Part shown: piece after piece, positions 1 to 31,874 of the stretch
Layout: each line of letters begins with the position of its first letter
Numbering within the stretch: the stretch's first letter is position 1
From: an uncultured archaeon
GTDB lineage: Archaea; Asgardarchaeota; Lokiarchaeia; Sigyniarchaeales; SOKP01
NCBI GenBank assembly: GCA_964508365.1
Contig: CAZDTP010000049.1
Location: 1-31,876 of the forward strand
Length of the DNA: 31,876 bases
Reading direction: 5' to 3'
Program-made: the position numbers and the translations under genes
Notes under the pieces: generated by a model
What the model saw: the letters and a program-made list of their open reading frames with translations, nothing else
The model's database searches: none
Told to the model about the DNA's origin: nothing

Positions 1-270
<270 letters not shown>

Positions 271-488: not shown

Positions 489-613
489 GTAATATTCATT
501 TTAAATTTTTTCATTTTTCTGGTTTTTCGAAGCATTCTTCAACAAATAATCGTAGTTTAAAAATCTATGTTGAGACTTAAAAATAATAAAATAAGAAAGG
601 AGCTAACCGAAAT

Positions 614-1618
614 ATGATGGATTTAAAGGAAAAAATTGGTATTCATCTTGATCAAATTAAACAACTGAAAGGAGTAGAAAATGCAGTTTTAACTCAAAGA
701 GACGGGAACCCAATTCAATCCGCGGGAGTCTGGTTTTCTAAGGATGAGATTTTCAATGTTAGTTCTGCAACTAGCGCTATATTTAATGTAGGAATACACC
801 TACATCCAAATGATTTAAAATACATCTTAATAGAAGGGAAAAAAGCAAAAATTTTAATTGCTCCTCTCAATAGCCCAATACATTATTCTTTAAATAGAAT
901 TCTGCAGCAACAAGGAATAATCGATAATAAACACGAATTTTTTATTGCTATTACTGCACAACCTAACACCAATTTAGGGGGGATATTTCTACAAACCAAC
1001 GAATGCTTAAAAAAGATAAAAACTACATTAATTACTTCTGGTGAATCGTTTAAGCCTCCTTTAGTTCAGTTTGATGATCATCGGATTCAAAGCATAATCG
1101 AGGGTTTTGATGTGAAAGAGAATGAGAATGTAAACTTTAGAGTATCTTCATTTTCATTAAATCTTTCAGAAAGTATCTCAATGGAACTAAGAAAAGTTTT
1201 GAATAACTTCTCTATTACGATTCCAGATTTAAAATTTGCTTACATTACAATTGAGGGGGGATTTATAGCTTCTAAAATTTTAAAACAAACCGAGAATAAG
1301 GAAGATGATTTAGATAACATCTCCGCTATGAGTTATTCGCTTTTTCAAACTGCAAATCGATGTGCGTGGTTACTAAAAAAGATGAATGCAGATAGTATTT
1401 TGTTAGATTGTGAAAATAAGTTTCAATTTATTCACGGTTTGGGAAAGGCGATATTTAGTACTGAGATAGGAAAATCCAGACAAAAATTGGGCTTAATAAG
1501 GCTAATTCTTCCTCAATTTTCGACAAAAATACGAAATCTCATCAAACAAGCATCTGAAATTCAGAATCAAAATGTTTTTGATATTAAGACTATGCTTGGG
1601 GAATTAGTTATTAAATGA
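614..1618 (+). CDS. Tandem roadblock/LC7 (MglB-like) domain protein
   Basis: The N-terminal unit (LDQIKQLKGVENAVLTQRDGNPIQS...IFNVSSATSAIFNVG...ILIEGKKAKILIAP) and C-terminal unit (VLNNFSITIPDLKFAYITIEGGFIAS...ISAMSYSLFQTA...ILLDCENKFQFIHGLG) each follow the roadblock pattern. The gene lies upstream of an MglA-type GTPase. Confidence 0.85.
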   Translation: MMDLKEKIGIHLDQIKQLKGVENAVLTQRDGNPIQSAGVWFSKDEIFNVSSATSAIFNVGIHLHPNDLKYILIEGKKAKILIAPLNSPIHYSLNRILQQQGIIDNKHEFFIAITAQPNTNLGGIFLQTNECLKKIKTTLITSGESFKPPLVQFDDHRIQSIIEGFDVKENENVNFRVSSFSLNLSESISMELRKVLNNFSITIPDLKFAYITIEGGFIASKILKQTENKEDDLDNISAMSYSLFQTANRCAWLLKKMNADSILLDCENKFQFIHGLGKAIFSTEIGKSRQKLGLIRLILPQFSTKIRNLIKQASEIQNQNVFDIKTMLGELVIK

Positions 1619-1630
1619 ATAGGTGAAAAA

Positions 1631-2527
1631 ATGAGTTTCTTTAAATTCCTAGAAAGGCTAAAAGCACCAGATACATCAATAATTCTTTATAGCTTGTTAA
1701 ATAGAATACCAATAATTGTATATGGTGATGATTCGGAAGAAGTTAATAATCTTATAATAGATCTATCGGACCTAATTCATTTCCGCAAAGAATTAGTATT
1801 CTATACTGATTTTATTTCGGAGACTGAATATACTAATTTAATTATGAATGAAAACATCGATTATAACTCACAACGAACACATATAAGATGCCCTACGACT
1901 GTTGCACTTAAAGCTTTAAACCAATTTGAAAGCTTTAATTCTTGGTTAATTGGAATTGAAATACCAGAGCAAAAGGAAAAAATTCAACAGTTTATTAACA
2001 GCGTTAAAAAGAAAATTGATCTTTTCTTAAGTATTAGTTTCTTTTCAAATTCAATTTCAATAGATTTTATAGGATTAAATTGGAAGCTACTCGATCTTAC
2101 TTTTGAAAGAGAGGTATTACAAAAAATATCTCAAGACACTGAAAAATCTATAACAAAAATGAAGCGGGTTCTTTTTGAGAAAGTTAAATCAGAAGATATA
2201 GATCAAGATTTACTTCGGACACTATTAGATTTTGATGTCGAAAAAGAGGAATTGAAGCGTAATATTTTTAAAAAGGAGATACAAAATTTTTATTCTGGGT
2301 CTAAGAGAGCTTTCTTTATTTTCTCTAGGTTAAATTTATTAAATAATATTGAAATTAATACCAAAATTGGGAGTAAAACGCTTATGGAAACAATAGATTA
2401 TGATTACGCGCATATAGAGAGAATAATCTCATTTATATGTAAAGAATGGGGAGAAGATTTTTCGTCTTTAATTGAGAATGGGAAAAAAGTTAATGCTCTA
2501 GATAGTATGCAATCGTTGTGGGGGTGA
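1631..2527 (+). CDS. Uncharacterised protein with a DENN-core-like alpha/beta domain and helical C-terminus
   Basis: Long ORF with SD AGGTGA at 1621-1626. IILYSLLNRIPIIVYGDDSEEVNNLIIDLSDL and SWLIGIE resemble the DENN core pattern by eye. The CDS is secure; the family call is inference. Confidence 0.55.
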   Translation: MSFFKFLERLKAPDTSIILYSLLNRIPIIVYGDDSEEVNNLIIDLSDLIHFRKELVFYTDFISETEYTNLIMNENIDYNSQRTHIRCPTTVALKALNQFESFNSWLIGIEIPEQKEKIQQFINSVKKKIDLFLSISFFSNSISIDFIGLNWKLLDLTFEREVLQKISQDTEKSITKMKRVLFEKVKSEDIDQDLLRTLLDFDVEKEELKRNIFKKEIQNFYSGSKRAFFIFSRLNLLNNIEINTKIGSKTLMETIDYDYAHIERIISFICKEWGEDFSSLIENGKKVNALDSMQSLWG

Positions 2528-2533
2528 CTAGCA

Positions 2534-3127
2534 GTGATATATGATTATGAGAATAAGATATTACAAGTAAAAATCGTTTATTATGGCCCCGCAATGTCAG
2601 GAAAAACGACCTCAATAAAACACTTATTCTCTTATTTTAATAAGGAAGACACATTAAATTCAATTGATAGCACTGTTGGTAGAACTCTGTTCTTTGATTT
2701 TGGTGTATTGCAATTTAAAGGCTCTGAATGGAGCTTAAAATTTTTAATATATTCTGCTACTGGACAAGATTTTTATGCAAGCACCAGACCAGCAACTTTG
2801 AATGGAGTAGATGCAGTGATTTTTGTTGTTGATTCAAGAGACCATTGCTTGCATCACAATATAAGATCGTGGAATGAGCTTAAAACAATGTTCAGAAATG
2901 AATTATATAACTTACCAATGGTGATTTCATTAAATAAATCTGATTTTGAATCGAAGCAAGAAATAAGAGATCATGAATTTATAAAGATAATAAATATAAA
3001 TCAATTTAAATACATTTCTGCTAATAGAACGGTTGCAACTGAAGGAAAAGGGATATTAGATGCATTTAATCGCATTATAACATTCATATTTCCAGAATTA
3101 ACATTAAAAATGAGTATAACAAATTAG
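2534..3127 (+). CDS. Small GTPase, MglA type
   Basis: VKIVYYGPAMSGKTT (G1), GRTLFFDF (G2 region), YSATGQDFYASTR (G3 equivalent of MglA TVPGQ), GVDAVIFVVDS and NKSD (G4). GTG start with SD GGGGTGA. Confidence 0.92.
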   Translation: MIYDYENKILQVKIVYYGPAMSGKTTSIKHLFSYFNKEDTLNSIDSTVGRTLFFDFGVLQFKGSEWSLKFLIYSATGQDFYASTRPATLNGVDAVIFVVDSRDHCLHHNIRSWNELKTMFRNELYNLPMVISLNKSDFESKQEIRDHEFIKIININQFKYISANRTVATEGKGILDAFNRIITFIFPELTLKMSITN

Positions 3128-3138
3128 TATTTTTATTT

Positions 3139-3315
3139 CTAAATTTTTTCATACATGTTTTTAGAAAGTCTTTTAATAAATCCTTGTTTGTGAAATTGTT
3201 TTAACAAATTTCGAACTTTTCTAACTTCCTGCGTATCTACTCCGAGTATACCTATTAACTGAAATATTGAAAACTGTTTTGGCAATTGTTCCTTGATGCT
3301 ATTATACACTCCCAT
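3139..3315 (-). CDS. Small winged-helix protein, 58 aa (below the ORF-track cutoff)
   Basis: Manual translation: MGVYNSIKEQLPKQFSIFQLIGILGVDTQEVRKVRNLLKQFHKQGFIKRLSKNMYEKI*. It has a helix-turn-helix followed by the typical wing (L..L.K.G.I.R.....Y). Confidence 0.75.
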   Translation of the reverse strand: MGVYNSIKEQLPKQFSIFQLIGILGVDTQEVRKVRNLLKQFHKQGFIKRLSKNMYEKI

Positions 3316-3693: not shown

Positions 3694-4374
3694 TTAAAAC
3701 TTTGGGATATCTCTACTGAAATTATCTCCAACTGGTGCTTTTCCATCCCCATATATCTGATATAATCCAGTTCTTCTCGCGCATTCGCTAAAACTTCTAT
3801 AGATATCCAATTTCTTCTCGTATAATGCACAAGTTTTATAAATTATAGGATTCCATATATATAACTCGTGATCTGGTTCATGCCAGAGCTTTTCTTCTTT
3901 GAGAACTTGCTTAAAATCTTCTTCTCCTATCGTTTCATTAAGATCTTGCTTATTTAGCATAGTTATAAGCGGAATTTCGTTTATTAATTTCCCCCTAGTA
4001 ATATTTTTTAGTTCTTTTAAAGATTCAATATTATCTTCAAAGAAGTGAGTTTGCGAATCAACTACGAAAATCACCCCATCAGTACCCTTGAAAATCTTTT
4101 TTCTTAATGGAGAGAATCTACTTTGCCCAGCAACAGTATAAACATGATAATATACCTTGTTCTGTTTAGTTGATTGAAAAATTCCACGATCGAAATATAA
4201 AGTAGACCCGCTCGCCATCGATATTTTAGTTAAATTTCCAGTTGGTGTAATATCTTTTTTTTGTTCTTTTGTAAGTCTGTATAACGTGTCTACTATCGTT
4301 GTTTTTCCAGAGCCTCCCATACCCCAGTAAAGAATTTTTATATAAATATTATGATCTGCAGTCCAACGAACCAT
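3694..4374 (-). CDS. Small GTPase, MglA type (second paralogue)
   Basis: IKILYWGMGGSGKTT (G1), GSTLYFDRG, YTVAGQSRF, KIFKGTDGVIFVVDSQ, NKQD (G4) and TCA (G5). Confidence 0.92.
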   Translation of the reverse strand: MVRWTADHNIYIKILYWGMGGSGKTTIVDTLYRLTKEQKKDITPTGNLTKISMASGSTLYFDRGIFQSTKQNKVYYHVYTVAGQSRFSPLRKKIFKGTDGVIFVVDSQTHFFEDNIESLKELKNITRGKLINEIPLITMLNKQDLNETIGEEDFKQVLKEEKLWHEPDHELYIWNPIIYKTCALYEKKLDIYRSFSECARRTGLYQIYGDGKAPVGDNFSRDIPKF

Positions 4375-5114: not shown

Positions 5115-6137
5115 ATGGAAATTAATACAAAAGAAAGTATAGAAGAAGAAAAATGCTCTGAATGTGGTGGTCCAGTAATGACGAATTCTTACGAAATAAC
5201 ATGTAAGGATTGTGGGTTAGTATTAGATAACATATATAAAGAATCGTCATATGTTTTCGACAACATCAATACCAAGAGTAATTTGAATAAACAGTATGTT
5301 GCTTTAGGAGAAAGAATTGATTATATTGGGGGATTAGGAACTTTTATAGACTATGAGAACTCAAAATATTTAAAAGATAAAACAGGTAAGTTATTACCCC
5401 CCGATGAGCAAAAACTATATAGAAGATTAAAAAAAAACTATTCACAATTTTTAAGAATTAAAAACCATGAAACTGAATACAGGATTTTTAATATATTAAA
5501 CAAAATCTCAATCTATTTAAACTTGAATAAGAATATCAGAAATAACGCGGCATATTACTATAAAAAAATAGTTAAGAATGAAGAGAGCGTTATCAATAAT
5601 ATCTCCTTGATTGCTTTTTGCATATTCTATTCAGTTCGTAAGGAGTATCATAATGCTCCAATTACTATTAACGAAATTTCAAATGCCTTTCAAAGTTTTG
5701 GGCACCGAGTTAATCCAAGATTGATTTTAAGAGATGGAATAAGGTATAAAAATCATTTAAATAATGATACGATACCTCATAGCAGTGAGGATTACTTAAA
5801 TAGATTGATCAATAACATTATAAATCATAAAGATTTAGAGATGAGGTTAGCAAAAAAAGGTAGTGTTTGGTCCAAAGAAGATTATAAGTGTAAACTGACT
5901 AGTAAATGCAGATTGATTTTAACAAGTTTAAATAAATGGGAGCGTGGTGGACGTAACCCTTTTATTTTAACTGGCGCTACTATTTATCTAGCAGATAAAT
6001 TGCTATCGAAGGAATTCAATCAAAAAACCGTCTTAACTCAAAAATTAATTTCATTAGCAACGAACATAGCTGAATATTCTATTAGAGACCATTATGTTAA
6101 TTTACTTAAACCAATTTTCATACAAAAGGAATGCTGA
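5115..6137 (+). CDS. tfb: Transcription initiation factor IIB (TFB), divergent paralogue
   Basis: N-terminal Zn ribbon CSECGG...CKDCGLV and two cyclin-like repeats (RNNAAYYYKK...IAFCIFYSVR; GGRNPFILTGATIYLA...TQKLIS...AEYSIRDHY). SD AGGTGA. Confidence 0.88.
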   Translation: MEINTKESIEEEKCSECGGPVMTNSYEITCKDCGLVLDNIYKESSYVFDNINTKSNLNKQYVALGERIDYIGGLGTFIDYENSKYLKDKTGKLLPPDEQKLYRRLKKNYSQFLRIKNHETEYRIFNILNKISIYLNLNKNIRNNAAYYYKKIVKNEESVINNISLIAFCIFYSVRKEYHNAPITINEISNAFQSFGHRVNPRLILRDGIRYKNHLNNDTIPHSSEDYLNRLINNIINHKDLEMRLAKKGSVWSKEDYKCKLTSKCRLILTSLNKWERGGRNPFILTGATIYLADKLLSKEFNQKTVLTQKLISLATNIAEYSIRDHYVNLLKPIFIQKEC

Positions 6138-6278: not shown

Positions 6279-6378
6279 GCTTCTGTAGTGTAGTCCGGCC
6301 AATCTTTCTTATGAAAGAAAGGGTTTGGCATGCGAGGCTCTCACCCTCGTGACCCGGGTTCAAATCCCGGCAGAAGCA
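6279..6378 (+). tRNA. tRNA-Glu(CTC) with a 25-nt intron in the D arm
   Basis: Acceptor stem GCTTCTG/CAGAAGC, anticodon arm CGAGG-CT CTC AC-CCTCG, T arm CCGGG-TTCAAAT-CCCGG, discriminator A. The D arm GTGT..AGTCCGGCCAA..GCAT closes only after 6303-6327 is removed. Confidence 0.95.
6303..6327 (+). other. Non-canonical tRNA intron (position 21/22) with a bulge-helix-bulge-like splice motif
   Basis: Central 4-bp helix GGCC/GGTT, 3-nt bulges AAT and TGG, and intron helix CTTTCT/AGAAAG. Cleavage after the second nucleotide of each bulge gives these boundaries. Confidence 0.85.
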
Positions 6379-31800: not shown

Positions 31801-31874
31801 GGGAGAGTGGCTTAGCCTGGTATAGCGCACGGCTGATAACCGTGAGGTCGGGGGTTCGAAGCCCCCCTTTCCCA
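31801..31874 (+). tRNA. tRNA-Ile(GAT), no intron, CCA not encoded
   Basis: Acceptor stem GGGAGAG/CTTTCCC, anticodon arm CACGG-CT GAT AA-CCGTG, T arm GGGGG-TTCGAAG-CCCCC, discriminator A. Confidence 0.96.

Follow-up and report, generated by a model that had tools for sequence, protein, structure and literature searches.

We suggest that three adjacent genes near one end of an Asgard archaeal contig probably encode a three-protein switch of the MglA/MglB type, with a DENN-domain protein as its third regulator. The genes, referred to here as genes 1, 2 and 3 (Table 1), lie in contig CAZDTP010000049.1 of GenBank assembly GCA_964508365.1, from an uncultured member of the Sigyniarchaeales (Lokiarchaeia); the stretch analysed, positions 1 to 31,876 of the contig in nucleotides (nt), is called the window below. 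Gene 1 is predicted to encode a tandem double-roadblock protein, gene 2 a stand-alone DENN-fold protein, and gene 3 an MglA-type small GTPase. This reading is favoured because the genes are tightly packed, carry Shine-Dalgarno-like motifs, share a single T-rich end, and keep their order and co-occurrence across the phylum. It is favoured as well because gene 3 matches MglA, gene 1 matches MglB and gene 2 has a DENN fold, and because in one genome the roadblock and GTPase genes are found as a core pair. Finally, the operon was independently predicted to be an FLCN-like regulator of a GTPase in the section that Liu et al. devote to it (bioRxiv 10.1101/2020.10.19.343400, Fig. 5b; Nature 2021).

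Existing annotation places gene 3 only loosely. Pfam assigns it to Ras/Arf/Roc, while in public records its relatives appear as Arf-like, SAR1-family, SR-beta or Rab-family proteins. When its product was searched against the PDB with phmmer, the four best matches were all MglA, with E-values from 1.5e-23 (3t12_A) to 6e-23, and the best Rab (Rab5) followed at 2e-6. The switch I motif GRTLFFD (R50-T51) aligns with RTLFFDF of Thermus MglA, with R50 as the intrinsic arginine, and the G3 motif SATGQ (S74, G77-Q78) aligns with TVPGQ of the same protein, with the catalytic glutamine retained and a serine at the position where other small GTPases carry aspartate. These features are not peculiar to the window: across 47 operon GTPases from the phylum, G1 GPAMSGKT, switch I GRT, (S/T)xTGQ and NKxD are all conserved. 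As its best matches are MglA proteins and it carries the hallmark motifs of MglA, gene 3 is, judged by sequence, a GTPase of the MglA family and not a Rag or a Rab. A Rag/Ragulator identity was considered and rejected: the 197-residue product has no extra domain and hence lacks the C-terminal roadblock domain of Rag proteins, its match to Gtr1_RagA stays below threshold (E 0.0068; 16.3 bits vs a cutoff of 22), and its best relatives are MglA. The genomic coupling expected of the MglA family is also seen: 49 of 51 loci have a roadblock gene within the operon, and in genome G167, described below, it is the immediate neighbour of the GTPase gene.

On its modelled structure, gene 1 is a single-chain counterpart of the MglB dimer, that is, a pseudo-dimer that would be functionally analogous to MglB but differs in architecture. 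Pfam Robl_LC7 (PF03259) matches residues 10-87 (E 2.6e-6; 27.5 bits vs a cutoff of 23), and the second roadblock domain, outside the Pfam match, was found by fold only. The AlphaFold (AF2) model, built from 26 orthologues (predicted local distance difference test, pLDDT, 78; predicted template modelling score, pTM, 0.78), consists of two complete alpha-beta-beta-alpha-beta-beta-beta-alpha roadblock units, RB1 (residues 1-142) and RB2 (about 182-317). RB2 is closest to MglB (3t1r_A; Z 16.4, root-mean-square deviation 1.9, 131 residues aligned) and RB1 to a Thorarchaeota roadblock protein (7f8m_A; Z 11.2). A Foldseek search with the model returned Asgard roadblocks, MglB and LAMTOR2/3; phmmer against the PDB gave nothing useful and NCBIfam no match. 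An MglB-type homodimer, which binds one GTPase, is made up of subunits of about 130-160 residues, whereas gene 1 encodes a 334-residue single chain with two diverged domains. RB1 is the better conserved of the two and has an invariant DGxP before beta-2, preceded by a basic residue that varies (R 18, K 6, Q 1, V 1; n=26 sequences). The MglB dimer uses one of its two C-terminal helices on MglA (PMC6785124), and the single C-terminal tail of gene 1 (residues ~319-334), whose last ~13 residues keep an amphipathic pattern, may be its parallel.

Gene 2 has no match in NCBIfam or in Pfam, the Pfam DENN families included, and its relatives, which form 386 clusters at 90% identity and 89 at 50% identity, are all labelled "hypothetical" in public records. 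An AF2 model from 45 diverse members (pLDDT 92.1, pTM 0.88) has an alpha/beta core, the cDENN, over residues ~1-150 and a helical dDENN over residues ~157-298. In an exhaustive VIA-align search with this model the top six matches were all DENN domains (Z 12.8-10.0), namely those of FLCN (6nzd_H, Z 12.8), the FLCN C-terminal domain (3v42_B, Z 12.7), DENND10 (8p0v_M, Z 11.7), SMCR8 (6lt0_B, Z 11.3), C9orf72 (7o2w_A, Z 10.5) and DENND1A (6ekk_A, Z 10.0). The matches span model residues 1 to about 275/285, with 173-209 residues aligned. The DENN fold is supported by these matches together with sub-threshold matches to Pfam Folliculin_C in 3 of the 45 family members (best E 4.8e-4) and with a language-model search (ESM-Atlas), in which the nearest feature clusters were C9orf72-like, Folliculin_C/SMCR8_C, SPA, Avl9 and DENND11. 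Because the FLCN alignment starts at model residue 1 (FLCN residue 346), the 298-residue protein leaves no room for a longin or uDENN domain; as modelled, gene 2 consists of just cDENN and dDENN and lacks the third part of the tripartite eukaryotic module, its longin domain.

The DENN relationship surfaced in the all-against-all VIA-align comparison and not in Foldseek, which against the PDB gave no match at E <= 0.001 and just weak ATPase rows. Sequence searches of the PDB were no more productive: the DENN-family profile recovered no DENN protein and only spurious ferritin matches, and phmmer nothing useful. The ATPase rows bear on another interpretation, in which gene 2 would be the degenerate remnant of a P-loop/RecA-like ATPase of the PilT/GspE/FlaI type with no more than a resemblance to DENN. 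VIA-align likewise lists GspE (2oap_1, Z 9.9) and FlaI (4ihq_A, Z 9.1), as well as many RecA-like ATPases at Z 7-8 over residues 1-150/223. However, the six best matches are DENN domains that reach into the helical C-terminal half (to residue about 275), as the ATPase matches do not; the Walker A motif is absent, the beta1-alpha1 loop reading YGDDSEEV; and the Folliculin_C matches, the DENN-family language-model neighbours and the independent DENN assignment made for the Asgard operon in the account of Liu et al. all point the other way. We consider an ATPase remnant highly improbable.

The three genes are separated by gaps of 12 nt (genes 1/2, 1619-1630) and 6 nt (genes 2/3, 2528-2533), and each is preceded by a Shine-Dalgarno-like motif. 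The TATA-like box upstream of gene 1 is a putative promoter of the operon, and an intergenic alignment shows the block GTTTAAAAA kept in five of six related loci. The GTG start of gene 3 is plausible, since its homologues are 197-203 residues long and the alignment with MglA begins at residue 4. Archaea use oligo-T terminators, and for this reason the T-rich tract immediately after gene 3 is read as the likely end of the operon transcript. The original prediction, made from the sequence, had described three co-oriented genes with these two gaps and with Shine-Dalgarno motifs at the second and third, which proved accurate to the base. Its three gene calls also stand: roadblock through the above-cutoff Robl_LC7 match and the MglB fold match, small GTPase through Pfam and PDB sequence matches, and DENN-like, for the middle gene, through the six top structural matches. 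Its expectation of a DENN or longin structure in the middle gene was borne out by VIA-align for DENN; Foldseek did not return it, and the longin domain is absent.

Both regulators are widespread and travel together. The DENN-family profile finds a copy, mostly a single one, in 230 of 399 genomes of the phylum and the double-roadblock profile in 233 of 399; the families positive and negative for the two profiles coincide, with several negative for both (e.g. 0/31, 0/22, 0/12 and 0/12). The synteny survey proposed with the original prediction gave a conserved gene order: roadblock-DENN-GTPase was the order in 29 of 31 nearer loci and, among the distant loci fetched from other families and classes, in all 20, so the three-gene arrangement is far beyond chance. 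NCBI locus tags of the relatives run consecutively. In G126, G127, G134, G255 and G269 the DENN and the double-roadblock profiles each match twice, on different contigs, so that the operon may be duplicated in these genomes or the bins may contain mixed strains. Within the window's genus, the 14 genomes negative for the roadblock gene are also those negative for the DENN gene. In dozens of related metagenome-assembled genomes the operon lies 0.4-2 kb from a contig end, on its upstream side, and these ends are best explained by assemblies breaking at the rRNA gene that neighbours the operon; the joint absence in the 14 genomes is most likely an assembly gap and not a loss.

A natural variant of the operon occurs in one genus. 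In G167, a 99%-complete genome of this genus, the GTPase gene comes immediately after the roadblock gene and the DENN gene lies on a different contig, and in two incomplete relatives the DENN gene stands alone amid unrelated genes (loci of the variant: L052, 1501-3121; L023, 1501-2397; L030). The unlinked DENN gene is flanked by a gene for a membrane protein on one side and by a glycyl-radical enzyme-like gene on the other. From the arrangement in G167 we take the roadblock and GTPase genes to be the core pair and DENN a retained accessory. The existence of loci in which DENN is separated from the other two genes would also agree with its product being an effector, a sequestering partner or a factor for localisation rather than an enzyme-like regulator. 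In Myxococcus, RomR/RomX and MglC play comparable parts, binding MglA-GTP or MglB and determining where the switch acts. Recent work identified RomRX as an effector and not a GEF (guanine nucleotide exchange factor), one that acts by sequestering MglB (PMC13408092), and MglB alone can provide both GTPase-activating protein (GAP) and GEF activity (PMC6785124). On the other hand, strict co-occurrence and gene order across classes are more typical of obligate partners, and the DENN domains that have been studied touch GTPases directly, the DENND1A-Rab35 pair being represented among our structural matches. A purely effector-like DENN protein therefore seems to us quite unlikely.

MglB, a dimer of roadblock subunits, serves MglA as a GAP and, via one C-terminal helix, as a GEF too (PMC6785124; PMC13408092). 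From the folds, motifs, gene order and co-occurrence described above we propose that the archaeal proteins form a physical complex with GAP and GEF roles and a cellular output. The GTPase would bring its own catalytic arginine (Arg50) and glutamine (Gln78). The tandem roadblock protein would most likely dock on it 1:1 and stimulate hydrolysis by positioning these two intrinsic residues; it may promote exchange too, through its tail, as bacterial MglB does. The DENN protein, having no longin platform of its own, would most likely bind either the roadblock platform or the GTPase, and could serve as an exchange factor, as DENND1 does for Rab35, or as a modulator of the GTPase-roadblock complex.

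A number of observations weigh against this proposal. Contact among the three proteins is something that we infer, and the DENN fold by itself does not distinguish a GEF from a GAP or a scaffold; FLCN and SMCR8 catalyse through their longin domains and not through DENN. The C-terminal helix of gene 1, to which exchange activity might be ascribed, is modelled at low confidence (pLDDT about 41-46). No fused roadblock-DENN or DENN-GTPase form was found among the longer relatives of gene 2, in what was a weak search, and relatives of 320-434 residues carry no additional Pfam domain. RNA support is thin as well: in four metatranscriptome runs low-depth contigs cover gene 1 in part, gene 2 at its start, and the GTPase gene next to the operon, none covers gene 3, and none bridges a gene junction, so that they are not evidence for co-transcription and could reflect DNA carry-over.

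The likeness of gene 2 to folliculin allows a different division of labour, in which the roadblock and DENN proteins together rebuild a longin+DENN module in split form, akin to FLCN-FNIP or C9orf72-SMCR8 but with its halves encoded by neighbouring genes, with only the pair being active, as a GAP, and no GEF involved. The best structural matches of gene 2 do include the DENN domains of FLCN and SMCR8, the roadblock-then-DENN gene order mirrors the N-to-C order of longin and DENN, and the asymmetry between RB1 and RB2 resembles that between catalytic and non-catalytic longins. In addition, the invariant DGxP of RB1 stands at the position of the GP motif, which has been reported as specific to GAP-type longins (PMC12290439). 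However, the basic position ahead of DGxP is not always occupied by arginine, the GTPase has an arginine finger of its own, G167 pairs the roadblock and GTPase genes with no DENN gene between them, and no fusion came out of the weak search mentioned above. DGxP-like motifs are, moreover, general to roadblock domains, MglB among them. A split folliculin-like GAP thus appears unlikely, and we retain the MglA/MglB-type switch with DENN as third regulator as the preferred explanation.

The operon itself is already known as a prediction and is not the undescribed system for which the original prediction put it forward as a candidate. Liu et al., where they treat it, predict a conserved Asgard operon of roadblock, DENN and small GTPase genes, describe the GTPase as distinct from the Rag family and propose an FLCN-like GEF function (10.1101/2020.10.19.343400). 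Their description and ours share three components in one putative operon, a wide Asgard distribution, the analogy with FLCN and Ragulator and a non-Rag GTPase. The adjacent roadblock, DENN and non-Rag GTPase genes of the window belong to that operon, the identity of the gene families being taken from the paper's description. They call the GTPase Rab-like (and the roadblock protein 'LAMTOR1-like'), but its sequence and motifs place it with MglA here; the passages of Liu et al. on the operon do not mention a tandem roadblock, an absent longin domain or a 16S rRNA neighbourhood. What is added here is the MglA-type client, the single-chain MglB-like platform, the longin-less DENN protein, the unlinked natural variant and the rRNA neighbourhood. 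We found no experimental test of a roadblock-DENN-GTPase module in the literature.

The idea of a Ragulator-FLCN-Rag-like module, also put forward in the original prediction, did not survive: an MglA-type GTPase without a C-terminal roadblock domain stands in place of a Rag, and the longin domain is missing from the DENN protein. We conclude that the arrangement more closely resembles an mglB-mglA pair into which a DENN gene has been inserted. As in Thermus thermophilus and Myxococcus xanthus, a roadblock gene lies upstream of an MglA-type GTPase gene; the GTPase shares with bacterial MglA the intrinsic arginine (RTLFFD), the glutamine and a Ser/Thr in place of the G3 aspartate; and MglB is the closest structure to the roadblock domain, with one C-terminal tail per platform here against the single C-terminal helix used by the bacterial dimer. 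Unlike the bacterial pair, the archaeal operon has one polypeptide with two diverged roadblock domains in place of a homodimer, and a DENN gene in between. The host is also an archaeon, and we know of no gliding or polarity system in it.

With FLCN-FNIP, C9orf72-SMCR8 and the DENND proteins the module shares the cDENN+dDENN fold of gene 2 (Z 10-12.8) and the association of a roadblock/longin-type platform with a small GTPase. It differs from them in that there is no longin domain in the chain, one DENN protein instead of a heterodimer, no trans arginine finger identified, and an MglA-type client in place of Rag, Arf or Rab. The Rag-FLCN system is defined by two longin+DENN proteins and a catalytic longin arginine, whereas here there is one longin-less DENN gene and a variable basic residue before DGxP. 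Ragulator-Rag likewise uses roadblock domains as a small-GTPase platform, but the archaeal GTPase is without the Rag C-terminal roadblock, a single two-domain roadblock protein takes the place of the five LAMTOR subunits, and there is no evident membrane anchor.

Upstream, the operon is divergent from the 5' end of a 16S rRNA gene. This adjacency is kept in the window's family and in a sister family of the same order; in other classes, no such neighbour was seen up to 3 kb away. The spacer (270-613) contains conserved blocks, among them the TATA-like box and a second AT-rich block that could be an rRNA promoter; the blocks other than the TATA-like box are likely to represent the rRNA leader and promoter, in which case the promoters of the operon and of the rRNA gene would sit back to back. 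Directly beyond the operon end, a convergent 58-residue open reading frame (ORF) is read as a real small gene because it is conserved in 29 related loci (50-100% amino-acid identity); its weak Pfam matches are winged-helix-like (MCM_C wHTH, E 0.018). The second small GTPase gene that follows has GSTLYFD as switch I, with serine replacing the intrinsic arginine, and TVAGQ as G3, and is kept beside the operon within the family only. The remaining features are listed in Table 1. The whole window is present in three salt-marsh metagenome runs, from which the DNA may have come. Metagenomes from soil, marine sediment, aquatic settings and permafrost contain a part of it (about 0.2-0.56 of words), and on these we base no firm claim on habitat.

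Table 1. Features of the operon and its surroundings, in window coordinates
Feature	Positions	Strand	Remarks
16S rRNA gene, 5' end	1-269	-	Rfam, 178 bits; divergent from operon, 345 nt from gene 1 start
TATA-like box TTTAAAAAT	556-564	+	50 nt 5' of gene 1 start; putative operon promoter
Shine-Dalgarno-like GGAG	599-602	+	11 nt 5' of gene 1 ATG; read from sequence
Gene 1, predicted tandem double-roadblock protein	614-1618	+	334 residues; ATG start
Shine-Dalgarno-like AGGTGA	1621-1626	+	4 nt 5' of gene 2 start; read from sequence
Gene 2, predicted stand-alone DENN-fold protein	1631-2527	+	298 residues; ATG start
Shine-Dalgarno-like GGGGGTGA	2520-2527	+	overlaps gene 2 stop codon, 6 nt 5' of gene 3; read from sequence
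Gene 3, predicted MglA-type small GTPase	2534-3127	+	197 residues; GTG start
T-rich tract TTTTTATTT	3129-3139	+	immediately 3' of gene 3 stop; likely terminator; read from sequence
58-residue ORF	3139-3315	-	directly beyond operon end, convergent
Second small GTPase	3694-4374	-	226 residues; convergent to operon; best PDB match MglA (E 4.6e-21), Arf second
Divergent paralogue of transcription factor B (TFB; TFIIB-like)	5115-6137	+	sub-threshold Pfam matches: Zn ribbon E 9e-5, cyclin repeat E 7e-4
tRNA match	6307-6378	+	Rfam, barely at gathering score (29.6 vs 29)
tRNA match	31801-31874	+	Rfam

DENN proteins, longin/roadblock proteins and small GTPases make up the core logic of eukaryotic membrane traffic and nutrient signalling, and the operon is one of the few cases in which genome layout alone pairs an Asgard GTPase with regulators. 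In MK-D1, GTPase genes are generally not found in operons with roadblock or longin genes (Tran et al. 2024), which makes the operon a usable exception. As its GTPase is MglA-type and its platform MglB-like, the module can be tested with the assays established for bacterial MglA and MglB, and it offers a concrete hypothesis on what DENN proteins did before eukaryotes. We raise with considerable reserve the idea that the eukaryotic longin+DENN module descends from an archaeal switch of the mglB-mglA type. The first client may have been an MglA-type GTPase with its own arginine finger, on which a stand-alone DENN protein acted in trans together with a duplicated roadblock platform; the neighbouring roadblock and DENN genes, 12 nt apart in the window, may have fused later, with the client switching to Rag, Arf or Rab. 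For the archaeon itself, the back-to-back placement with the 16S rRNA promoter, which is conserved within this order, could tie the switch to the synthesis of ribosomes or to growth, and such a coupling, if true, would be a functional echo of Rag-FLCN-TORC1.

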